Origin: Anaerolineae bacterium
Lineage (GTDB): Bacteria; Chloroflexota; Anaerolineae; Aggregatilineales; J027
Length of the DNA stretch: 64,000 bases
Direction of reading: 5' to 3'
NCBI GenBank assembly: GCA_019913005.1
Contig: JAIOHL010000333.1
Coordinates: forward strand, 100,885 to 164,884
Below the pieces are notes generated by a model. The model was not told the DNA's origin and searched no databases. It was given only the letters and a program-made list of their open reading frames with translations. Position 1 is the stretch's first letter; every line of letters begins with the position of its first letter. Below are positions 339 to 31,720 of the stretch, one piece after another. Both the position numbers and the translations under genes were made by a program.

Positions 339-1139
339 ATGTCGAATACCGCCGCGTTTGACACCCTTGCCGCCGTGTATGACCGCGACTTTGCCGAAAG
401 TCCGGTCTCACGTTGGCTGCGGGAACGGGTCTGGTCATGGCTTGAACCGCGTTTCCAAACTGGCGATACCGCTTTTGAAATCGGGTGTGCCAGCGGGATA
501 GATGCGTTGTGGATGGCCCAACGCGGAGTCAAAGTCATCGCCGCCGACATCAGCCCGTTCATGCTGGAACAAACACAAGCCAAAGCCGAAGCCGCTAATC
601 TGGGCCATCTCGTGACACCCCTACTTTTTGATCTCAATCAGTTGCCGGAGTGGGATGGCGAACCCGTAGACGGGGTATACAGCAACTTTGGCCCGGTCAA
701 CTGCACCCGTGATTGGGCCGGGTTAGGGCGATTTTTGGCAAAGGCGGTTAAACCGGGGGGCTATGTCGGGTTAGGCATTATCTCCCCATTTTGCATGTGG
801 GAAACGCTCTGGCATGGCCTCCATCTGGATTTCCGCACCGCTTTTCGTCGGTTCAAACGCGAAACAATTGCCACCTTGCCGGGTGGGGGGACACTGCCGA
901 TTTATTACCCCTCACCCCGCCAATTTGCCCGCGCTTTCCAGCCCTATTTTGAATTTGAACGGGTACGTGGGTTAGGCGTATTTTTGCCTCCTAGCGATGC
1001 TTTTGGGGTGGTAGATAAACGCCCTCGAATCATGAAACCTTTAATTACCGCCGAAACCCGTCTGGCTGATTACTGGCCCTTCCGCACATGGACGGATCAC
1101 TATTGGATTGAATTTAGACGAACAGAAGATAAGTCATGA
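339..1139 (+). CDS. Class I SAM-dependent methyltransferase
   Basis: 266-aa ORF with a SAM-binding motif I-like FEIGCASGIDALWMAQRG followed by VIAADIS. It starts 3 nt after the GH1 stop, and its stop overlaps the next start (ATGA at 1136-1139). Confidence 0.75.
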   Translation: MSNTAAFDTLAAVYDRDFAESPVSRWLRERVWSWLEPRFQTGDTAFEIGCASGIDALWMAQRGVKVIAADISPFMLEQTQAKAEAANLGHLVTPLLFDLNQLPEWDGEPVDGVYSNFGPVNCTRDWAGLGRFLAKAVKPGGYVGLGIISPFCMWETLWHGLHLDFRTAFRRFKRETIATLPGGGTLPIYYPSPRQFARAFQPYFEFERVRGLGVFLPPSDAFGVVDKRPRIMKPLITAETRLADYWPFRTWTDHYWIEFRRTEDKS

Positions 1140-1843
1140 GTATTGAACTCTCTGATTATGTCTCGGCAGGTTACTACATCACCAAATACATGACACGCGG
1201 CGATTGGCAATCTGCCGGGTTGCTCCCCGAAAAACTTTTGAGTGTATCCCACTGCCTCGCAAAAATAGCGCCAATTGTTTACTGGGCCAATTCGCAGGAA
1301 GATTTTGACGCTTTTGGTATTCCCGACACCCTTCGACCAGAATTCGAACAGTGGTGTAGTGATAGGTTTGACATAGAAATTGGCTTTCCTGATGTCATCT
1401 ATCATCTCCAAACTGCCCGTGATTTCATCTCCCGCTTCATTCCTAAAAAGGAAGATATATTTCTACTTGGGGCGGGTTTGCACAAGGATTTTGTCGAACT
1501 ATTCCTAAATTTTGAGCAGCCTTTATTGAAGGAATACGCAAAGGATGAGCCTGAGCGCGGGCTGTCACATATCATTAGGCAAAGGTCGTCTGTGTTGGAT
1601 GGGGAAATCCTCGGCTATGAGGTCGTGTGCAGTGACTTCGGCGATATAAACCATTCTTGGCTGTGCAACGGTCTCGAAAAAGATGGATGGGAGCGATTTC
1701 AAATTCGGCCCAATCAATACGGCTTCATCGAAAGCTACGCTGAGGCGAAAACATTGACCGAATTTATCATGACCGACCCCGCGATATATGGCGAACCCGG
1801 CTTTTATATGCCGCTACTCATCATCAATTATCCATTGGAGTGA
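1136..1843 (+). CDS. Hypothetical protein (no recognisable domain)
   Basis: 235-aa ORF that is translationally coupled at both ends (ATGA at 1136, GTGA at 1840). It looks somewhat lower in GC than its neighbours by eye. No competing ORF. Confidence 0.5.
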   Translation: MSIELSDYVSAGYYITKYMTRGDWQSAGLLPEKLLSVSHCLAKIAPIVYWANSQEDFDAFGIPDTLRPEFEQWCSDRFDIEIGFPDVIYHLQTARDFISRFIPKKEDIFLLGAGLHKDFVELFLNFEQPLLKEYAKDEPERGLSHIIRQRSSVLDGEILGYEVVCSDFGDINHSWLCNGLEKDGWERFQIRPNQYGFIESYAEAKTLTEFIMTDPAIYGEPGFYMPLLIINYPLE

Positions 1844-2169
1844 CCCCTATGAGCGCCCAAGAACCTGAATTTTGTTATGTCACCACCACTGGTTGGAAGA
1901 GTGGGAAACCCCATGAAATCGAAATCTGGTTTGTCAGCAATGATGGAGCGTATTACATCGTGGCAGAGGGGCGTGAAAAAGCCCACTGGGTACAAAATAT
2001 CCGGCACAATCCGGTGATTTCCGTTCGTGTAGGTGATAAAACGTATCAAGGTAAGGGTCGGGTCATTGACCGCACCGACGAACCCGAACTCGCTGCCGCT
2101 GTCGCCGCCAAAATGGACGCCAAATATGAGTGGAGTGACGGCCTGATTGTCGAACTCCGGCCCGATTAA
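1840..2169 (+). CDS. Small PNPOx-like / deazaflavin-dependent nitroreductase family protein (DUF385-like)
   Basis: 109 aa. TTTGWKSGKPHEIEIWF...YYIVAEGREKAHWVQNIRHNP resembles the DUF385/F420H2-dependent reductase family as I remember it. GTG 1840 overlaps the upstream stop; ATG 1849 is an alternative start. Confidence 0.6.
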   Translation: MTPMSAQEPEFCYVTTTGWKSGKPHEIEIWFVSNDGAYYIVAEGREKAHWVQNIRHNPVISVRVGDKTYQGKGRVIDRTDEPELAAAVAAKMDAKYEWSDGLIVELRPD

Positions 2170-3056
2170 CCATCGGTTTTGGGAATAGGGGCGGCCTTAA
2201 ATCCACGTCCATAGGCCACATGACCCTGCCCAATGACCACAAACGCTTTAGGGTCAACAGCGAACACCAGATGGCGCAGCGTGGCGACTTGGGGACGGGC
2301 AATCGTCACGAACAAAACGGTGTGGGGTTGATCGGTAAACATGCCCATGCCTTCCCATGACGTGACCCCACGCCCCAATTGACCCAAAATCGCTTTGGAT
2401 ACTTCTTGTGGATAATCGGTCACAATTGTCACGGTACGAATGACACTTGGCCCTTCTAGCACATAATCCGCTACCATGCCACTGATAAATAGCGAAACAA
2501 TGGCATACATGGCGGCTTCCCACCCAAACACCAACCCCGCCATGCCGATAATCAGGGTATCGGTATACAGATAGGCGCTACTGAGGGGGATGCCCATTTT
2601 ATGCTGCAAAATCCGCGAGAGAGTGGCTGTGCCCCCCGCCGTTGCCCCTGCGCCATAAATGAGGCCGCTGCCAATTCCGCCGACAATCCCGCCAAAAATC
2701 GCATTGAGCAAATCATTCTCGCTGACGCCATGTGTCGAAACAAAGGCAGGCAAAATATCGACTGAGGTGCTGAAAATGACCACCGAGAAAATCGTGCTGA
2801 TAATGAGCCAGCTTCCCCCCAGCACCCGATAGGCAAAAATCTGGATAGGGATGTTAAAAATTAGGGTCATAATCCCGACAGGTGTGCCGATGACCTCATG
2901 CAAAATGATGGCGATGCCGGAAACACCCCCTGGCGCAATTTGTGAGGGAATGAGGAACACAATCACCCCGATGGCGCTGATAATCGTGCCAATCGCCGTT
3001 TGTAACAAACGCCAACCGGATGCAAAGCCGCCTAGTCGTTGAAGTAGGTTTGTCAC
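2166..3056 (-). CDS. YitT-family membrane protein (DUF161/DUF2179 type)
   Basis: 296 aa with multiple glycine-rich TM helices, followed by a soluble C-terminal domain (TIVTDYPQEVSKAILGQLGRGVTSWEGMGMF...TVLFVTIARPQV) typical of YitT. Its stop overlaps the convergent DUF385 stop within TTAA (2166-2169). Confidence 0.75.
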   Translation of the reverse strand: MTNLLQRLGGFASGWRLLQTAIGTIISAIGVIVFLIPSQIAPGGVSGIAIILHEVIGTPVGIMTLIFNIPIQIFAYRVLGGSWLIISTIFSVVIFSTSVDILPAFVSTHGVSENDLLNAIFGGIVGGIGSGLIYGAGATAGGTATLSRILQHKMGIPLSSAYLYTDTLIIGMAGLVFGWEAAMYAIVSLFISGMVADYVLEGPSVIRTVTIVTDYPQEVSKAILGQLGRGVTSWEGMGMFTDQPHTVLFVTIARPQVATLRHLVFAVDPKAFVVIGQGHVAYGRGFKAAPIPKTDG

Positions 3057-15962: not shown

Positions 15963-16232
15963 TTAAAACTGGGATATGAGTTTGTCATAATCCGAATGAG
16001 TACCAACCCAAAACCAGACGATTTCATCACCATCACGGAGACCCACCACCCGATAATCAATACTCACTCTCGCTGAGTAAATTGGTTTGGTCGGATGTAT
16101 CTGCTTGAAATGCAAACTTGGGTGATAGGGGTTTTCCCTAAACAGTAAATAGGCTTGCCTCGCCTGCCGTCTAATCTGCGGTGGGAGATTTTCTAGCCCT
16201 TTTCTAAATCGCTCGGTAGTGCGAGAAATCAT
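15963..16232 (-). CDS. Type II toxin, RelE/ParE superfamily
   Basis: 89 aa. The pattern ...NPYHPSLHFKQI......YSARVSIDYRVVG...DEIVWFWVGTHSDYDKLI is typical of RelE/ParE toxins. A 4-nt overlap joins it to the upstream small acidic ORF. Confidence 0.7.
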   Translation of the reverse strand: MISRTTERFRKGLENLPPQIRRQARQAYLLFRENPYHPSLHFKQIHPTKPIYSARVSIDYRVVGLRDGDEIVWFWVGTHSDYDKLISQF

Positions 16233-22742: not shown

Positions 22743-23432
22743 TTAGCTCGAAAGCGCCTCGACCAATTGACGCAGGCCCTTTTTGTAATCGGTGTAGCAG
22801 TCAAAACGGGTACAGCGGCGTAGCTCATCCGGCGGGTCAACCGGTTCGACCAACGCCAAGATGATTGGTTTGCGCTGACTGCGGAAATATTGCCATGCTT
22901 GTTCCACACTACCCGTCTTGATGCCAAATTGGGACAACACCACGACCATTTTTTTGCATTGTTCCAAAGCCGGATGCACCCCGCCTGCCCAATTCACATT
23001 TTCGGGGGTTTCCCCGTCATCCAGCCACGTGGAAATGCCTACCGCCTTGAGGTCGTCGGCTAATTTTTTGGCAAAATCAGCATCGGTGGCGGCGGCGGCG
23101 ATATAAGTGGCGGCTTCAATTTTGATCTTGGCGGCTTTGGTCTTGCCCATTCCGCGTGTATCCGCCACATTCACCGCGCTTGGTTTAGAGGTGAAATCGT
23201 GCGCCGAGGTCTTGCCCATGCGATAGACCGTGCCGCCGCAAGTGGGACATTCGCCACGTGTACCGGGACGCCCTTTGCTTGTCCAAACCGCCTGTGGGTT
23301 CAGCATTTCGACTTTTTCACGGCAGGTGACACAAAACGCCTCTACCGCCTCATCTTCAAGATCGCTGAGGTGTTCCAATTCATCTATATCTTCAAATTCA
23401 TCCCGAAAGGGGTCGCGGTCATAGTCCGTCAT
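22743..23432 (-). CDS. Acidic N-terminus + CxxC...CxxC zinc ribbon (DUF5679-like) + TIR-like domain protein
   Basis: 229 aa. Residues 34-74 (CVTCREKVEMLNPQAVWTSKGRPGTRGECPTCGGTVYRMGK) form the ribbon. The C-terminal part, from about residue 108 to 229 (TDADFAKKLADDLKAVGISTWLDD...MVVVLSQ...SVEQAWQYF...KPIILALVEP), follows the bacterial TIR layout. Confidence 0.6.
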   Translation of the reverse strand: MTDYDRDPFRDEFEDIDELEHLSDLEDEAVEAFCVTCREKVEMLNPQAVWTSKGRPGTRGECPTCGGTVYRMGKTSAHDFTSKPSAVNVADTRGMGKTKAAKIKIEAATYIAAAATDADFAKKLADDLKAVGISTWLDDGETPENVNWAGGVHPALEQCKKMVVVLSQFGIKTGSVEQAWQYFRSQRKPIILALVEPVDPPDELRRCTRFDCYTDYKKGLRQLVEALSS

Positions 23433-23504
23433 AAAATTCCAACCCTAATGTTTGTCTTTGTATACGTTCAAGATTAGCACATTCGTCTATTCTGTCCAAA
23501 CTAA

Positions 23505-23533
23505 TTGACAGCCCAAAACCCGAACGTTATACT
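23505..23533 (+). promoter_or_regulatory. his operon promoter (consensus-like)
   Basis: TTGACA (23505-23510), a 17-nt spacer, then TATACT (23528-23533). Only 7 nt separate the -10 from the leader-peptide ATG. Confidence 0.6.
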
Positions 23534-23540
23534 TTCGCCC

Positions 23541-23615
23541 ATGTTAAAAAATCAACTTTCTATCGCTGTGTATCATCACCATCATCATAACTTCCGGCTT
23601 CATTTCCGGTGGTGA
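23541..23615 (+). CDS. hisL: his operon leader peptide (24 codons, 5 consecutive His codons)
   Basis: ATG 23541 to TGA 23613-23615 encodes MLKNQLSIAVYHHHHHNFRLHFRW. The His run CAT CAC CAT CAT CAT spans 23574-23588, and there is a sixth His at 23601. The ORF sits between the promoter and hisG and is too short for the ORF track. Confidence 0.65.
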   Translation: MLKNQLSIAVYHHHHHNFRLHFRW

Positions 23616-23674
23616 TGGTGTGTCGCGCCCGCAAAAATTTTCAAAATAGGGCGCACCCGAAATCAGCAAATCTG

Positions 23675-23710
23675 CGCTCCACGCCAACCGGATGTGGGGC
23701 GTTTTTGTTT
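23675..23710 (+). terminator. Candidate attenuator terminator of the his leader
   Basis: CGCTCCAC (23675-23682) pairs with GTGGGGCG (23694-23701) for 8 bp with one G.U, around an 11-nt loop, followed by TTTTTGTTT (23702-23710). It ends 36 nt before the hisG ATG. Confidence 0.55.
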
Positions 23711-23745
23711 ATGGGGTAGCCATCAAAAGGGAGAGTAAGGGTCGA

Positions 23746-24750
23746 ATGAATGAGCAAGTACGAATCGCATTGCCAAGCAAAGGGCGGATGGAAGGGGAAA
23801 CCCTCGAATTCCTTGCCAACTGCGGCTTGCGTGTCAACAAAACCAATCCGCGCCAATATACCGCCACGATTCCCGCCCTACCGGGGGTAACGGTCATGTT
23901 CATGCGTCCCCGTGACGTTCCCGTCAGCGTGGCATCGGGGGATATGGATTTGGGGATTACAGGTTATGACACGGTGTATGATGCGTTTGGCGGCGAAACC
24001 GAGGAATTGATGCTAGTCCATGAGGCGCTCGATTATGGACAGTGTGCACTGGTGCTGGCTGTCCCGATGGAATGGACAGAGGTGCATACCGTCCAAGATT
24101 TAACCGCCAAAGCCGCCCAACATGAACTGCGGGTCGCCACCAAATATCGCAATTCGGTAGATCGTTTTTTAACGGAGCGCCACATTTCGGGTATACGGGT
24201 AGTTAGTGCGGATGGGGCACTCGAAGCCGCCCCCAGCATTGGGTATGCCGATTTTATTGCCGACATCACCAGCAGCGGTACGACTCTGCGCGAAAACAAT
24301 CTGCGTTCATTGGAAGATGGCCTGATTGTGGATTCACAAGCCGTATTGATTGGCAACCGCACCGCATTAGCAACCCGTCCAGCAGTCATGGCGGCGACGG
24401 AGCAACTCCTAGAATTTATCGAAGCCTATATGAACGCACATGGCAAATACATGATTTTCGCCAACATGCGGGGGGAGACATTGGATGAGGTCGCCCACCT
24501 AGTATTGGGGCAACCCGATTTAGGTGGCCTGCAATGGCCTACTATTTCGCCGCTTGGGACACAAGCCCATCATGGCAACTGGTGGTCGGTCAGCATTGTG
24601 GTGTCCCATGCTAGACTATATCCCGCCATACAACAGTTCCGTACCATCGGGGGCAGTGGTGTCGTCGTAACCCCGGTGTCGTATATTTTTGAAGAACGGC
24701 CCGAACGTTGCCGCCGCCTATTATCTATTGTTCAAGGGGTGCAACCATGA
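23746..24750 (+). CDS. hisG: ATP phosphoribosyltransferase, long form with C-terminal regulatory domain
   Basis: MNEQVRIALPSKGRMEGETLEFL...DLGITGYD, with GGGAGAG upstream of ATG 23746. The track start 23692 lies inside the terminator and is rejected. The stop overlaps the hisD ATG (ATGA at 24747-24750). Confidence 0.9.
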   Translation: MNEQVRIALPSKGRMEGETLEFLANCGLRVNKTNPRQYTATIPALPGVTVMFMRPRDVPVSVASGDMDLGITGYDTVYDAFGGETEELMLVHEALDYGQCALVLAVPMEWTEVHTVQDLTAKAAQHELRVATKYRNSVDRFLTERHISGIRVVSADGALEAAPSIGYADFIADITSSGTTLRENNLRSLEDGLIVDSQAVLIGNRTALATRPAVMAATEQLLEFIEAYMNAHGKYMIFANMRGETLDEVAHLVLGQPDLGGLQWPTISPLGTQAHHGNWWSVSIVVSHARLYPAIQQFRTIGGSGVVVTPVSYIFEERPERCRRLLSIVQGVQP

Positions 24751-26075
24751 CCGAATTGCTGCCGATTTATTCACTAGCCGATGCCAAAACCAAGATTTTG
24801 TTGCGCCGTCCGCCTGACGAGACAGAAGTAACACCCGCTATCAGCAAACGGTTAGAAGAATTGTTTGATGGGCCAGTTACCCCCGAAGAAGCGGTACGTC
24901 GGATTTTGACGGCGATTCGGGATGGGTCGGACAATGCAGTGGGGTATTGGACAAAAAAGATTGATGGTGTGCAACTTGATGCGCTGTATGTACCGGAAAT
25001 CGAAATCCACGAGGCACTGGATAGAATCCCCCAAAAAGTTGCCGAAGCCTTGCAATTGGCAGCAGGACGCATTGAAAATTTCCACCGGACACAAGCCGAA
25101 CACCTGACGGATTGGTATGAAAACGGATTGGGGCAAATTTTGCGCCCGATTACCAAAGTCGGGGTGTATGTGCCGGGGGGGACAGCGCCGCTGCCTTCCT
25201 CGCTGTTGATGAGCGCGATTCCAGCGTTGGTGGCAGGCGTTGAAGAAATCATTATCTGTACCCCTCCGCAAAAGGATGGGACGGTCAATCCGGTCATCTT
25301 AGCAGCGGCGGCGGTGTGTGGTATCAAAAAAGTGTTTAAGGTGGGTGGGGCGCAGGCGATTGCAGCAATGGCCTATGGCACACAGACCATCCCGCGTGTG
25401 GACAAGATCGTTGGGCCGGGAAATCTGTTTGTAACATTGGCAAAACGACAGGTGTTTGGTGTGGTGGGGATTGACGGGCTGCCGGGGCCAACGGAGACTA
25501 TGATTATCGCCGATGAATCCGCCAATCCCGCCCTTGCCGCCGCTGATTTATTGGCCCAAGCCGAACATGATGTGCTGGCCTCGGCGATTCTCGTCACCCC
25601 CAGTCGCAATCTTGCCAAACGAGTGCAAATTGAAGTGGCCCGTCAGTTGGAGCATTTGGACCGTGACAACATTATCGCACAATCCCTCAGCAATCAAGGT
25701 GGGGTAGTCATTGTGAATGGCCTCGTGGAAGCGTTTGAGGTCGCCAATGAGTATGCCGCCGAACATCTCTGCCTGCTGCTGGAAGACCCCTTTGCGTGGA
25801 TTGGCGAAGTCAAAAACGCCGGGGGTATTTTCTTGGGAGAGGGGTCATTTGAGGTGTTGGGGGATTACGTGGCAGGGCCGAGCCATGTCATGCCAACCGG
25901 GGGCACAGCACGATTCTCCTCTCCGCTCAATATTTTAGACTTCATCAAAATTACCAGTGTCATCGGCCTTGACCATGACACCGCCGCTGAACTGAGCAAA
26001 GCCGCCTCGGTGCTGGCCCATGCCGAATCTTTGACCGCCCATGCCGCCGCTGCTGAAGCCCGTATACAGGAGTAA
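24747..26075 (+). CDS. hisD: Histidinol dehydrogenase
   Basis: Conserved blocks [27 protein letters not shown] and AEHDVLA. Start at the ATGA overlap with hisG. Confidence 0.9.
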
Positions 26076-26080
26076 TCGCT

Positions 26081-27205
26081 ATGCAGACTCAAGACATTCC
26101 CCAAATACGCATCCGGTCAGACATCGCCGCAATGGAGGGGTATGGGTATCCTAGCGGCACACTCGAATTATTGAGCGAACGCATGGGTCGCCCTGCCAGC
26201 GAAATCATCAAACTCGATACCAATGAAAATCCATTCGGGCCATCTCCTAGAGCCTTAGAAGCCCTCGGCAAGATGGAAAGTACCGCTCATATCTACCCCG
26301 ATGTGCGTGTACCGTATCTGCGGGCAGGCTTGGCGGAATATACCGGGGTTGACCCAGAGCATATTTTGGTTGGGCAGGGTTGCGACGAAATTATCAAAAT
26401 CACCGAGCAGTTATTTCTTGAACCCGGCGATGTTATTTTGAACTGCCCGCCGACCTTCACCATGTATTCACTGGTGGCAGGCTGGCTCGGCGCAAAAACG
26501 ATCAACATCCCCCGCCGTGCCGATTTTTCGCTGGATGTGGAAGCGATTGAAAAAGCCGCCCATGAAACGGGTGCAAAATTATTGTTCGTCTGCTCCCCCA
26601 ATAATCCCGATGGCAGCCTAACTCCACCCGATGTTTTGGAGCGACTTTTAAAGCTACCGCTGGTTGTGGTGCTAGATGAAGCCTATTTTGAATTCGCTGG
26701 GGTCGAAAATAACGCGCTGCGAGTGCCAGATACGACGAACCTGATTGTGATTCGCACCTTCAGCAAATGGGCAGGCTTGGCAGGGCTGCGGATTGGCTAT
26801 GGCATCTATCCGCTGGAAATCATCGAACACCTCTGGAAAATCAAGCTACCGTTTAATGTGAGTGCCGCTGCCGATGTTGCTGCACGGGCGACACTGACTG
26901 ATATGCCAATGATGCAGGCCAATATTCAAAAAATCATCAACGAGCGTGAACGATTCATCGCCGAATTAAAGACCATTCCCTATATCCATGTTTACCCAAG
27001 CGCGGCCAACTTTGTTTTTTGCAAGGTTGCCAGCGTGCCGATTCCCGAATTACAAACACGGCTGGAAAATGAAGGCATCCTAATTCGTTACTACGAAGGC
27101 AAAGTGCCGGGGCATGTGCGGATTAGTATTGGACGTCCCGACCAAGACGACAAATTATTAGCCGTACTGCGCCAACTTGGGAAGGAATGGAACGTCCATG
27201 CGTAA
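26081..27205 (+). CDS. hisC: Histidinol-phosphate aminotransferase
   Basis: 374 aa with [20 protein letters not shown]-like SPNNPDGS and [14 protein letters not shown] (PLP lysine context). Confidence 0.9.
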
Positions 27206-27791
27206 CGCGAAAATTCAACGCAACACCCAAGAAACCCAAATTGAATTGGCCCTTGAATTGGATGGCACGGGGCAGGCAAATATCAATACCGGGGTCGGTT
27301 TTTTTGACCATATGCTGCACCATGTCGCGGTGCATGGCCTGTTCGATCTGATCGTGCTCGCACAGGGTGATTTACATATTGATTCCCACCACACCATTGA
27401 AGATGTCGCTATTTGTTTGGGGCAGGCACTACACGAGGCGCTGGGGGATCGCAAAGGCATTGTGCGGATGGGGTCGGCGCTCGTCCCGATGGATGAGGCG
27501 CTGGCACAGGTCGTGATTGACCTCAGTGGGCGGCCCTATACTATCGTCCATGCCGATTTTGATACCCCGACCATCGGGCAAATGCCGACATCACTGGTAA
27601 CCCATGTATTTGAATCCATTGCTACCCATGCCCGCATGAATTTGCACGCGCAGGTATTTTATGGGCGTGACGACCATCACAAAGCCGAAGCATTGTTTAA
27701 AGCATTGGGTCGGGCGTTGCGTGGCGCGGTTGAACTCGACCCCCGCCGACAAGGAATCATCCCAAGCACGAAAGGAACATTGACCAAATGA
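27198..27791 (+). CDS. hisB: Imidazoleglycerol-phosphate dehydratase (monofunctional)
   Basis: [17 protein letters not shown]...[11 protein letters not shown]...[11 protein letters not shown] 27198 overlaps the hisC end by 8 nt. There is no N-terminal histidinol-phosphatase domain. Confidence 0.9.
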
Positions 27792-28396
27792 TCGCCATTG
27801 TAGATTATGGGGCTGGAAATTTACGCAGCGTGCAAAATACGTTGAAGCATGTCGGGGCGGAGACCAAAACGGTCAGCAAACCCAACGAACTCGACGGCGC
27901 GGATAAGATCGTCCTGCCGGGAGTGGGGGCATTTGGAGCAGGCATAGCAGCGTTGCGCGACTCAGGTTTTGTTGAGCCGATTATCCAATTAACCAGAGGG
28001 GGTGTGCCATTGCTCGGCATTTGTTTGGGGATGCAATATTTGTTTGAGACCAGCGAAGAAATGGGCACGCATCAAGGATTAGGATTGCTGTCGGGGCGGG
28101 TGGTCAAATTTCCACCGAATGGTCCACTGGTGCCGCATATCGGGTGGAATCAATTACACATTCGCCAACAAAGCCCCTTGTTGCGCGGCGTGAATGAAGG
28201 TGACTATGCCTATTTTGTCCACTCGTATTATGTCGAAGCCGCCGACCCCAATGATATTCTCGCCAGCACTGATTATGGTCTAAATTATGCCAGCGTGGTG
28301 GGGCGCGGCAACATTTTTGGGATTCAATGCCATCCCGAAAAAAGCCAGCATGTCGGGCAGCGTATTTTGCGTAATTTCGTGGAGGACATAAGTTGA
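27788..28396 (+). CDS. hisH: Imidazole glycerol phosphate synthase, glutamine amidotransferase subunit
   Basis: [15 protein letters not shown]...LPGVGAFG...GICLGMQ...CHPEKS (Cys-His-Glu triad context). ATGA overlap with hisB. Confidence 0.9.
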
Positions 28397-29109
28397 TTAT
28401 CTATCCCGCGATTGATATTCGACAGGGGCGCGTGGTACGGCTACTCTATGGCGACCCCAACCTTGAATCGGTCTATGGTTATGATCCGGTGGCGATGGCC
28501 CAAAAATGGCAGAATGCCGGGGCGGAGTGGGTGCATATCGTTAATTTGGATGGAACACTCGGTGCGGAAACGACTATTTTTGATACGGTGCGCCAGATTG
28601 CCGATTTAGGATTATCGGTGCAATTTGCAGGCGGCCTTCGCAATTTTGACGCCGCGCAACAGGCTATTGATGCCGGGGCAGAACGGGTTGTGTTTGGTAC
28701 GCTGTTGGTCAAGCAGCCAGAACTTGCCGCCGAAGCCGTCCAAAAATTTAGCGCGGAACGGGTCGTCGTCGCGCTGGATGCCAAAGGCGGGCAGGTGGCG
28801 ACACATGGCTGGCAAGAAAAATCCACATGGTCGCCAATTGAACTCGGTCAGCGACTCGCCGCTGATGGGATTCGACACGCCCTCTATACCGATGTGGATA
28901 AAGACGGCGATTTATCAGGAGTGAATGTGGAATCCACTGCCGCCCTTGCTGATGCGACAAGTTTGCAAGTCATCGCATCAGGGGGAGTCGCCAAGTTAGA
29001 CGATATTCGCATATTAAAATCCACTGGCAAAGTCGCCGGGGTGATTATCGGGCGGGCGCTGTATGCGGGGGTGTTCTCGTTGGAAGAGGTTTTTGAGGCA
29101 TTAAAGTGA
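28393..29109 (+). CDS. hisA: ProFAR isomerase
   Basis: (M)[16 protein letters not shown]...SGGV...GRALY. TTG start overlaps the hisH stop. Confidence 0.85.
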   Translation: MIIYPAIDIRQGRVVRLLYGDPNLESVYGYDPVAMAQKWQNAGAEWVHIVNLDGTLGAETTIFDTVRQIADLGLSVQFAGGLRNFDAAQQAIDAGAERVVFGTLLVKQPELAAEAVQKFSAERVVVALDAKGGQVATHGWQEKSTWSPIELGQRLAADGIRHALYTDVDKDGDLSGVNVESTAALADATSLQVIASGGVAKLDDIRILKSTGKVAGVIIGRALYAGVFSLEEVFEALK

Positions 29110-29110
29110 A

Positions 29111-29548
29111 ATGTCCAATTATGTGTCCCAGAAAACGAAGTTTTTTGAGGAAATTTCAGAGCAGTTTAAGCGACGGGGTTGGAAAATCACACCTAATAGC
29201 CCAACCAACTTAGCTTTATCAGGATACACCTTAGAGGGGTGCGGTATTTGGGCTTTAATCCTGATGCCATTTGTGGCTTTTTTAGGGATCATTGCTTTTC
29301 CAATCAATTATTTATTGATAACAACCACACTCAAAAAAGTACATGCCCAGTTATATCTCAATGAATTTGGCGAGATTGAGTTGACGGGTAATATCGGAAA
29401 GCGTTGTGTTGATCGGACGATATTAGGAAAACCACAAATCCCCAGAATTTTGATGCTTAGTAAAGAGGCTCTTATAGCTTTTCTCTTGTTGGGGTCTCTC
29501 CCAACAACATTCCTCGAAATAGGGATTTTATTAAATGCTATTCAGTGA
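29111..29548 (+). CDS. Hypothetical small membrane protein, AT-rich ORF inserted between hisA and hisF
   Basis: 145-aa ORF starting 2 nt after the hisA stop and ending 12 nt before the hisF ATG. It has two or three hydrophobic helices. Line 29281-29340 has 17/60 G+C, against 38/60 for the hisA line 28741-28800. Confidence 0.5.
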   Translation: MSNYVSQKTKFFEEISEQFKRRGWKITPNSPTNLALSGYTLEGCGIWALILMPFVAFLGIIAFPINYLLITTTLKKVHAQLYLNEFGEIELTGNIGKRCVDRTILGKPQIPRILMLSKEALIAFLLLGSLPTTFLEIGILLNAIQ

Positions 29549-29560
29549 GGTAGTGTTTTT

Positions 29561-30352
29561 ATGTTAGCAAAACGAATCATTCCCTGCTTGGATGTGAAAG
29601 ATGGGCGGGTGGTTAAAGGTATCAATTTTGTGAATCTGCGTGATGCAGGTGACCCGGTAGAACAGGCCATGATTTATGATGCTGCCGGGGCGGATGAACT
29701 AGTCTTTTTGGACATCACCGCCACCCATGAAAAACGCGATACCATGCTAGATGTGGTACGCCGTGTGGCCGATTCGATTTTTATCCCCTTTAGTGTGGGG
29801 GGTGGGATTCGCACCGTTGAAGATATGCGGGCGACGTTGCTGGCGGGGGCGGATCGTGTCTCGGTCAACAGTGCCGCTGTGCGTGACCCCGAAATTATCA
29901 GCGAAGGGGCGGAACGTTTCGGTGTGCAGTGCATCATCTTGGCGATTGATGCACGCTGGAATGGCGATTTTTTTGAGGTCTATGTCGCAGGGGGACGCAC
30001 TCCCACAGGTATTAACGCAGTTGAATGGGCCATGCGCGGCGAACAAATGGGAGCAGGTGAAATTTTACTCACCAGCATGGATCGGGATGGCACAAAAATC
30101 GGGTATGATTTGAAGCTGACCCGTGCGATTGCCGAGGCAGTCAATATTCCGGTCATCGCATCGGGTGGGGCAGGCAAAAAAGAGGATTTTCTACCCGCCT
30201 TCACAGAAGGGAAAGCCGAGGCGGTGCTTGCCGCCAGCCTGTTCCATTATCAAGAACTCAGCATCCACGATTTGAAAACTTATCTACATGAAAATGGCGT
30301 ACCAGTGCGCTTGACGGAGGCCGTCACCGATGGACAACCTGAAGTGGGATGA
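29561..30352 (+). CDS. hisF: Imidazole glycerol phosphate synthase, cyclase subunit
   Basis: [19 protein letters not shown]...[10 protein letters not shown]...SVGGGIR...ASGGAG. Confidence 0.9.
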
Positions 30353-30955: not shown

Positions 30956-31720
30956 ATGACAGCAAAACCCAAGTGGTTGATTCTAACAGATGAATTGCTT
31001 TGGCCTCTCGTTGGAATGGGACTAAATTCCCTAAATTTTATATGGGCAAGTTCAAATCCCGATTTGGGAAGTATACCTTATGCATCTCTCCTTCATTTTG
31101 CACACTCCCTCGAAACCAGCATGGTCACAAATGAAGCGGGCAAACATTCCGTTGCCATTTGTCTGCTTAGGCAATGCGTTGAAACTGTCACTCTCATTGA
31201 TATTGGTCTTCAGGAGACTACCTTTTCAGAACCCTTACTTGCTTCATGGAAAGCTGGGAAAAAATCCCATGGGGAACTTCGCGCAAAACTTGAAGAAAAT
31301 ATTTGGCCTAATTATGGGACAGGTTTTTGGGATGAAAACTGGACTGAATATTTCAGAAACTTTGCTGGTGCGGTTCAACCCTATGCCCACTACACACAAG
31401 GATTAATGGGTTGGCAATTCAGCGTAGTGGATACGAATTTGAGTAAATCCCAGTATTTAGCCAGCTTGGATTTACTGGGCGGCTATGACCCTTTAAAAGC
31501 ATCGAGAATCACATTGTTTCACAGCATTCTTGGCTGGACTTTAGGTCGTCTTCTGTTAACGCATGGAAAAAATCAAGATGTGCTTGACAGAGAGGATAAA
31601 ATTCTCGATTGGGGGAAAAGTCTAGCATCGTCAAAATTATTATTCCATAAAGAAAATTGGGGAGTTCAATTATTGGCAGACGTGTTTTTTAAGTCGGGAG
31701 CAAGCTACTTCGACTCATAA
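30956..31720 (+). CDS. Hypothetical protein, low-GC, directly downstream of hisE
   Basis: 254-aa ORF with GAGGAC 7 nt upstream of the ATG. No domain recognised. Line 31021-31080 has 20/60 G+C. Confidence 0.5.
   Translation: MTAKPKWLILTDELLWPLVGMGLNSLNFIWASSNPDLGSIPYASLLHFAHSLETSMVTNEAGKHSVAICLLRQCVETVTLIDIGLQETTFSEPLLASWKAGKKSHGELRAKLEENIWPNYGTGFWDENWTEYFRNFAGAVQPYAHYTQGLMGWQFSVVDTNLSKSQYLASLDLLGGYDPLKASRITLFHSILGWTLGRLLLTHGKNQDVLDREDKILDWGKSLASSKLLFHKENWGVQLLADVFFKSGASYFDS

Follow-up and report, generated by a model that had tools for sequence, protein, structure and literature searches.

The present analysis concerns the region directly upstream of hisG (positions 23505 to 23745) in a stretch of 64,000 nucleotides from an uncultured Anaerolineae bacterium of the phylum Chloroflexota (contig JAIOHL010000333.1), which we call the window throughout and whose first letter is position 1. 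In our judgement, this region quite probably holds a transcription attenuator of the his operon, in which a ribosome translating a His-rich leader peptide from a leaderless messenger RNA (mRNA) would decide whether RNA polymerase reads on into the operon. The sequence elements involved, their conservation and their alternative pairings can be observed directly. Comparison of related leaders supports a conserved logic of the trp type (helices 1:2, 2:3 and 3:4), in which the strand complementary to the His codons would pair directly with the 5' arm of the terminator. Taken as a whole, the leader is very likely a class-wide, apparently leaderless His leader-peptide attenuator; the mechanism itself is a textbook one and involves no new principle. 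What is gained is breadth and an evolutionary view: classical His leader-peptide attenuation would be extended to Chloroflexota (Anaerolineae in the broad sense), and the leader peptides apparently made from a leaderless mRNA would gain a clear case from beyond Actinobacteria.

The His leader and its conservation

The elements of the leader and of the operon behind it are as follows.

23505 to 23510, plus strand: -35 box TTGACA, read from the sequence; the same hexamer stands in 43 of 48 related leaders
23528 to 23533, plus strand: -10 box TATACT, with a 17-nucleotide spacer from the -35 box; TATACT in 44 of 48 relatives, 17-nucleotide spacer in 38 of 48
23534 to 23540, plus strand: discriminator TTCGCCC, 7 nucleotides, with no Shine-Dalgarno sequence; its length is kept and its sequence varies among the 48 leaders
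23541 to 23615, plus strand: hisL-like leader open reading frame (ORF) of 24 codons, MLKNQLSIAVYHHHHHNFRLHFRW, with stop codon UGA at 23613 to 23615; His-rich homologous ORFs in 49 relatives
23574 to 23588, plus strand: five consecutive His codons, the putative regulatory codons; 23574 to 23587 is segment 1, the 5' strand of helix 1:2
23594 to 23609, plus strand: apical part of hairpin 1:2, where CCGG (23594 to 23597) pairs with CCGG (23606 to 23609)
23608 to 23622, plus strand: segment 2 (GGUGGUGAUGGUGUG), which contains the leader stop codon and can pair with the His codons or with the terminator 5' arm and loop
23625 to 23654, plus strand: middle hairpin GCGCCC/GGGCGC, 6 base pairs, inside the antiterminator loop; its 3' strand may pair with 23673 to 23679
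23674 to 23689, plus strand: segment 3, the terminator 5' arm (23674 to 23685) and loop (23686 to 23689)
23690 to 23710, plus strand: segment 4, the terminator 3' arm (23690 to 23702) and U-tract UUUUUGUUU (23702 to 23710)
23729 to 23735, plus strand: Shine-Dalgarno sequence GGGAGAG of hisG, 10 nucleotides before the ATG at 23746
23746 to 30352, plus strand: the operon under the proposed control, hisG, hisD, hisC, hisB, hisH, hisA, orf145 and hisF, from NCBIfam equivalog matches and ORF coordinates

The promoter (TTGACA, 17 nucleotides, TATACT; 23505 to 23533) agrees with the consensus at 11 of 12 positions. Both it and the 24-codon ORF are present just as claimed by the original prediction, a model's note made from the letters of the window, and so are the five consecutive His codons and the additional sixth one. 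The latter lies at 23601 to 23603, in the loop of hairpin 1:2, and is not conserved even among the closest relatives; this loop varies in loci L001, L003 and L006. The ORF has what one would look for in a regulatory reading frame, namely, five consecutive His codons (six in total) ahead of hisGDCBHAF.

The relatives come from scanning one genome per species for hisG, which gave 53 loci, 51 of them with sequence upstream of hisG; nearly all are metagenome-assembled genomes labelled Chloroflexota or Anaerolineae, including Aggregatilineales, Thermoflexus, Ardenticatenia and Anaerolinea. A His-rich short ORF and an intrinsic terminator precede hisG in 49 of the 51 loci, that is, in all those whose HisG is at least 57% identical, and among these 51 the leader is absent only from the outgroups L052 and L053 (HisG identity 40 to 41%). 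In 46 of the 51, an ORF containing three or more His codons in a row lies 80 to 170 nucleotides before hisG; L011 and L043 have leaders of the HAHAHHP type, and in L010 the leader stands 2 kilobases upstream of hisG with a group II intron in between. Every leader is followed by a terminator, a hairpin of -16 to -28 kcal/mol with a run of U, 18 to 106 nucleotides before hisG. That the element is kept in no fewer than 49 species-level genomes suffices for defining a new RNA family. It also gives annotators a reason not to label such short ORFs as hypothetical proteins, and the leader could potentially serve as a marker of histidine starvation in metatranscriptomes of wastewater and anammox communities.

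The element was also recovered independently. A metagenome search with the pattern TTGACA-N16-18-TATACT-N7-ATG-N12-36-(CAY)3, which contains no term for a his gene, returned 77 stretches, about 40 of which have in-frame His short ORFs, most of them followed by his genes: about 20 precede hisG and are of the Anaerolineae type, and about 13 precede hisH-hisA-hisF and have a different leader. A covariance model (R1) built from 44 leaders, including that of the window, scored 34 to 127 bits on leaders outside its build (L010, L030, L032, L039, L040 and the metagenome copies). The window's own leader scored 85 bits and was the sole convincing match in the window; a second match at 15996 to 16194 (17.6 bits, expectation value E = 0.05), inside an 89-residue minus-strand ORF, we attribute to chance.

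Comparison of the peptides bears on whether translation matters at all. The peptides are 17 to 34 residues long, typically of the pattern MxxxxHAHAHHH...RRSGG...CV, and their N-termini are highly divergent, with only the in-frame His codons kept. The conserved 'SGG' near the C-terminus is encoded by the RNA strand CGGUCCGGUGGUG, and it is this strand, not the protein, that accounts for its conservation. One could propose a switch independent of translation that senses a protein or a tRNA, T-box-like or HutP-like, in which the His codons are a by-product of GGUGGUG pairing; alternatively, one could propose a functional His-rich micropeptide with an unrelated terminator behind it. Indeed, CAC and CAU codons complement GUG and AUG repeats, so that structure and coding are confounded, and the 'SGG' end is clearly dictated by the RNA. 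That said, in every leader the His run keeps the frame of the ATG despite 5 to 11 variable codons between the two, and the stop codon invariably falls in or after segment 2 (within it in the window, 15 to 25 nucleotides beyond it in the main clade). Apart from the His codons, neither the length nor the sequence of the peptide is conserved, and the element is linked to his biosynthetic genes in the independent metagenome matches.

Known RNA families also speak against a switch made of RNA alone. In particular, neither the Rfam family His_leader (RF00514) nor T-box (RF00230) has a match in 23300 to 23900 even at E up to 10, and neither of them nor any other Rfam family matches a leader in the window or in 20 related loci at the gathering score. 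The leader thus belongs to neither RF00514 nor the T-box family. A match to Thr_leader (RF00506; 17.7 bits, E = 1, below the 55-bit gathering threshold) is at chance level and reflects a generic resemblance among attenuators. All in all, we regard both the RNA-only switch and the micropeptide as highly improbable, and a leader peptide whose translation is sensed as much the better reading.

Two observations on the relatives stand somewhat apart. A long-form hisG of the Anaerolineae kind occurs in L052, a metagenome-assembled genome labelled Heimdallarchaeota (40% identity), and in L048, labelled Brocadiia (62%), which may reflect mis-binning or gene transfer. In L010 (positions 914 to 3000; an Aggregatilineales metagenome-assembled genome, contig CBDCER010000003.1), the U-run of the terminator is directly followed by a group II intron some 1.85 kilobases long; Rfam RF02001 matches at 1191 to 1362 (105 bits) and domain V, RF00029, at 2916 to 2983 (41 bits), and two ORFs (1518 to 2474 and 2547 to 2912) lie between the two matches. 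Insertion behind intrinsic terminators is a habit of some bacterial group II introns; if it holds here, the site of the intron would speak indirectly for recognition of the hairpin as a terminator.

Alternative pairings and the proposed switch

Left unconstrained, the leader of the window (23541 to 23745) folds into three hairpins, namely, the His-run hairpin, GCGCCC/GGGCGC and the terminator, with a z-score of -3.07 and 1 of 200 shuffles equally stable. In the first of these, the His run pairs with GGUGAUGGUG: helix 1:2 joins 23574-23587 to 23610-23622 over 13 base pairs (duplex energy -18.2 kcal/mol), and the stretch spanning the His run and the stop codon folds with a z-score of -4.0 against shuffles. 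The helix claimed by the original prediction is accordingly there, but longer than the 11 base pairs given, with CCGG:CCGG on top. The second hairpin, GCGCCC (23625 to 23630) with GGGCGC (23649 to 23654), belongs to the minimum free energy structure, in line with the same prediction. The terminator pairs 23674-23685 with 23690-23702 (12 base pairs, -18.5 kcal/mol), followed by U5-G-U3 at 23702 to 23710, some 39 to 40 nucleotides ahead of hisG; it, too, had been predicted, at the smaller extent of 23675-23682 with 23694-23701.

What the original prediction had not found was the pairing that would link a stalled ribosome to antitermination. We identify it as helix 2:3, in which 23608-23621 pairs with 23676-23689 over 12 base pairs (duplex energy -15.2 kcal/mol), leaving the GCGCCC/GGGCGC hairpin in its loop. 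This helix excludes the terminator and uses the strand that is otherwise paired to the His-codon region, as an antiterminator should. With the ribosomal A site placed on His12 or His14, the fold containing 2:3 has an energy of -44.5 kcal/mol, as compared to -43.6 kcal/mol for the full-length fold containing the terminator.

The switch would then operate as follows. RNA polymerase would start at or near A23541, and a ribosome would load on the 5'-terminal AUG and translate the 24-codon ORF. When charged transfer RNA for histidine (tRNA-His) is plentiful, the ribosome would pass the five His codons and arrive at the UGA at 23613 to 23615; as this codon lies inside segment 2, the ribosome would cover the segment or the segment would return to pairing with the His-codon strand (1:2), the terminator (23674-23685 with 23690-23702, plus the U-tract) would form, and transcription would stop about 40 nucleotides before hisG. 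When tRNA-His is scarce, the ribosome would stall on 23574 to 23588 and hide segment 1, and the freed segment 2 (23608 to 23621) would pair with the 5' arm and loop of the terminator (23676 to 23689) before the 3' arm is synthesised. The terminator being blocked, polymerase would read into hisGDCBHA-orf-F. Finally, if there is no translation at all, helices 1:2 and 3:4 would both form and lead to termination.

Evidence for this logic comes from comparing leaders in two alignments: a structure-blind one made with MAFFT (A1), and a covariance-model alignment of 65 leaders (A2) that was fitted to helices 1:2 and 3:4 only, and not to 2:3. In A1, 84.5% of the cells of helix 2:3 are paired, as opposed to 36 to 55% when the strands are slid, and 21 cells carry double changes where 5.1 ± 2.0 are expected, a number reached in 0 of 500 shuffles. 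The values from A2 are nearly the same (85.4% paired as opposed to 36 to 56% slid; 21 double changes versus 5.4 ± 2.1 expected). Terminator helix 3:4 is paired in 99% of the cells of A2, with compensatory changes in 7 of its 10 pairs, and helix 1:2 is paired in 63 to 85% of the cells of A2 (per helix) and in 72% of those of A1 when in register, as opposed to 26 to 50% when slid. The helices share columns of A2: columns 112 to 118 (segment 2) are common to 1:2 and 2:3, and columns 196 to 204 to 2:3 and 3:4. In the main clade, helix 2:3 takes the form CGG-U-CCGG-U-GGUG with CGCC-UC-CCGG-U-CCG, and the terminator loop (UCCG) is conserved because it is paired in this helix.

Folding points in the same direction. 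To represent the state before the decision point, leaders were folded without the terminator 3' arm. With no ribosome, or with one at the stop codon, the median paired fraction of the terminator 5' arm is 0.45, largely in local pairs; with a ribosome masked on the His codons it rises to 0.73, and the partner of the 5' arm is then the strand otherwise paired with the His codons.

That said, several points weigh against this reading. Covariation in helix 1:2 does not exceed that of shuffles in the MAFFT alignment, although the helix is, sequence by sequence, more stable than shuffles in the family (mean z of -1.39, with 90% of sequences below 0, the window being at -4.0). Of the regularities that the original prediction would lead one to seek upstream of hisG in relatives, the His-run ORF (49 of 51 loci) and compensatory changes in 2:3 and 3:4 are found, but such changes in 1:2 do not go beyond those of shuffles in the MAFFT alignment. 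The energy of the antiterminator, when compared to leaders whose intervening region was dinucleotide-shuffled, gives a weak signal (mean z of -0.7, window -0.31, 14% of sequences below -1.64), which we ascribe to the fact that a G-rich stretch pairs with a C-rich arm nearly whatever the order. When the complete terminator is present and the ribosome is masked, thermodynamic folds usually retain the terminator, so that the switch must be kinetic. In the window's clade, moreover, a ribosome positioned on the stop codon and extending 11 nucleotides downstream would release GGGCGCA for pairing with the terminator arm at its base, opposite to the logic proposed. Finally, we infer ribosome stalling, termination and the response to histidine, as well as the start of transcription, for organisms that are uncultured.

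The pairing of GGGCGCA lies at the heart of an alternative, in which the clade of the window would follow the six-segment scheme known from the his leader of Salmonella and Escherichia coli, with helices A:B, C:D and E:F set against B:C and D:E, and with GGGCGCA:UGCGCUC as the antiterminator. Helix D:E (23649-23655 with 23673-23679) is, in fact, clean, with 7 base pairs and -10.3 kcal/mol, shares positions with the base of the terminator's 5' arm and is the minimum free energy pairing once segment C is masked; helix C:D, for its part, is found in the unconstrained minimum free energy structure. However, there is no usable B:C pairing, with GGUGUG and CGCGCC just 1 nucleotide apart, and folds with a stalled ribosome keep C:D closed and let segment 2 take the terminator arm. 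What is more, the physiological state in which D:E would form, that of a ribosome having reached the stop codon, is the wrong one.

The relatives add to this. A hairpin in the middle position is common among them, its sequence being unconserved, but D:E is confined to the window's own clade: the main clade has no such complementarity, and the 3' strand of its middle hairpin resembles the terminator arm instead of complementing it. We therefore hold the six-segment scheme to be unlikely and retain the three-helix logic. In this sense, the pairing of GGGCGCA with UGCGCUC suggested by the original prediction is possible and does overlap the terminator arm, but it belongs to the window's clade only. 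The likeness to the enterobacterial his attenuator drawn there survives as leader-peptide attenuation, with 49 relatives, and not as six-segment logic, which is not conserved.

The start of the leader transcript

The leader peptide is apparently translated from a leaderless mRNA, as all proxies that can be read from the sequences agree. Namely, the -10 box is separated from the ATG by 7 nucleotides in 45 of 48 leaders (8 in two and 9 in one), ATG is the sole start codon among related leaders, and a pyrimidine directly precedes its A in 46 of 48. The 7-nucleotide discriminators of the related leaders vary in sequence, are rich in pyrimidines and hold no Shine-Dalgarno sequence. A 7-nucleotide gap places the second base of the -10 box 12 nucleotides 5' of the start codon, which is the signature used for predicting leaderless genes in bacteria (PMC3160421). 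The combination of a -35-like box, a -10 box, 6 to 8 nucleotides and a start codon occurs at a single site in the 64-kilobase window, 23505 to 23541, and a search of the same window for a second promoter-N7-ATG site found none. From this we infer that transcription starts at A23541 of the ATG, give or take one base. The conjecture of a leaderless transcript, made by the original prediction from the short gap and the missing Shine-Dalgarno sequence of the window, is thereby backed by the wider family.

One may instead suppose that the attenuator works as described but that its transcript is not leaderless, with transcription starting either farther upstream or only a few bases 5' of the AUG, and translation starting by some route other than Shine-Dalgarno pairing. 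The start site is, after all, a predicted one, and predictions for Chloroflexi put leaderless genes at a low share, about 5% in 4 of 12 genomes (PMC3160421). In Anaerolineae, about 58% of genes have a Shine-Dalgarno sequence (PMC10783764), and hisG in the window is one that carries it. Furthermore, L040, L025 and L041 are the leaders with the spacing of 8 to 9 nucleotides, and L030 has no adjacent -10 box. Against this stand the near-perfect boxes fixed at 7 nucleotides from the ATG in 45 of 48 leaders, whose flanks are otherwise unrelated across lineages, the pyrimidine at -1 followed by A at +1, the exclusive use of ATG and the lack of space for a ribosome-binding site. On balance, a transcript with a leader of its own appears improbable to us, and a leaderless one is preferred.

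Locus L030 (1203 to 1532) merits separate mention. It keeps the His ORF (MKAIYIAQTIHHHHHLE) and the terminator, and it has no -10 box 7 nucleotides before the ATG; an extended -10-like sequence, TGGTATAAT, lies about 55 nucleotides upstream. It may be a non-leaderless variant with a 5' untranslated region.

Known systems, other leaders and neighbouring genes

The closest comparison is the enterobacterial hisL attenuator (RF00514), which shares with the leader described here a short ORF with a His run, alternative hairpins, an intrinsic terminator directly before hisG, and an operon of the order hisG-D-C-B-H-A-F; the logic of attenuation, as described in PMC9413887, is also the same. The differences are that the enterobacterial ORF is led by a Shine-Dalgarno sequence and the present one is leaderless, and that the present family, from another phylum, has 3 to 6 consecutive His codons, often as HxHxHHH, and a conserved core of three helices, not six segments. 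In this respect it is nearer to E. coli trpL, where likewise a stalled ribosome masks segment 1 and lets 2:3 replace terminator 3:4, the position of the stop codon lets a terminating ribosome cover segment 2 or the segment re-pair, and absence of translation leads to termination. The present leader departs from trpL in sensing His and not Trp, in having an extra hairpin in the 2:3 loop, in being leaderless and in its unrelated sequence.

Leaderless regulatory ORFs have precedents in Actinobacteria, namely, the ilvB leader of Corynebacterium, where transcription starts at the leader start codon (PMC5784534; PMC11857589), and the short poly-Cys ORFs of mycobacteria (bioRxiv 10.1101/834739). There, too, a regulatory short ORF at the 5' end of the transcript controls the downstream operon, and stalling on cognate codons remodels the RNA behind it; unlike here, the amino acids are branched-chain ones or Cys, the phylum is another and the transcription start was measured, whereas ours is predicted. 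Leader-peptide attenuators with His codons have been predicted in Firmicutes, in three lineages (the Bacillus cereus group, Peptostreptococcaceae and Erysipelotrichales; PMC9413887) and, in bacilli, ahead of hisS/hisZ (PMC2965389). Similarly to the present case, these are lineage-specific His-run ORFs accompanied by hairpins for termination and antitermination; comparative genomics brought them to light, and they have no match to RF00514. They differ in phylum, show no sequence similarity, and a leaderless start is not mentioned in those papers. A non-exhaustive literature search found no report of a his attenuator in Chloroflexota or Anaerolineae, in agreement with the original prediction.

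Several further leaders came to light along the way. On metagenome contigs, a second family of His leaders with the same promoter-N7-ATG design and a terminator lies before hisH-hisA-hisF (L056, L066, L067, L069, L072, L075, L080, L082, L093, L106, L111, L112 and L121; for example, L111:2936-3735). Examples of its peptides are MQITFSFHHHHIQAHTLLLD and MINDFLHTSHHHSSIKSYPVSGV, the motif GGUGUCGGGnnUCUGAGAC is common to several, and R1 gives these leaders just 14 to 40 bits. In L070 (409 to 1519), a His leader of the leaderless type (MFAQRNVALAVHHHPSPRRGGVVFS) and a terminator precede a 304-residue protein with no Pfam match, and a gene of the Trp_repressor family (PF01371; 32 to 367) adjoins the locus; the histidine repressor HisR is a member of that family (PMC9413887). 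L070 may represent a histidine-controlled gene outside the biosynthetic operon. On a contig of high GC (guanine plus cytosine) content, L099:111-400 holds a variant leader (MFFARMRHHRLHHHHPATGGWVEM) and then a terminator; the next gene starts with MTDILRIGLPKGRMERAVLDLL, resembling, by eye, the start of HisG in the window (MNEQVRIALPSKGRMEGETLEFL). As to leaderless leaders with runs of other amino acids, the window and all loci yielded only a CCC-containing ORF with no terminator, which we set aside as a chance occurrence.

It is tempting to speculate further that leaderless initiation is integral to the mechanism, and that the shared design of consensus promoter, N7, AUG, His run and terminator marks a wider, hitherto undescribed set of histidine-sensing leaders. 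We offer this idea tentatively and would not be surprised if it failed. If it were true, translation and transcription would be kept in step by a ribosome whose only loading site is the 5'-terminal AUG, taken as soon as that codon emerges from the polymerase; a Shine-Dalgarno sequence or a dedicated pause would then be dispensable, and the set would span sub-operons led by hisG and by hisH-hisA-hisF, possibly non-biosynthetic genes as well, in several uncultured lineages.

As for the neighbourhood in the window, the operon extends from hisG (23746 to 24750) to hisF (29561 to 30352). Neither orf145 (29111 to 29548, plus strand, 145 residues, between hisA and hisF) nor the 254-residue ORF located 3' of hisF (30956 to 31720, plus strand) has a match in NCBIfam or Pfam, and no hisI or hisE was identified among the ORFs scanned in the window. 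On the other side of the leader, the gene at 22743 to 23432 (minus strand) encodes a protein with DUF5679 (zinc-ribbon-like) and TIR_2 domains; it is divergent from the his leader, so the terminator of the leader is not the terminator of that gene.

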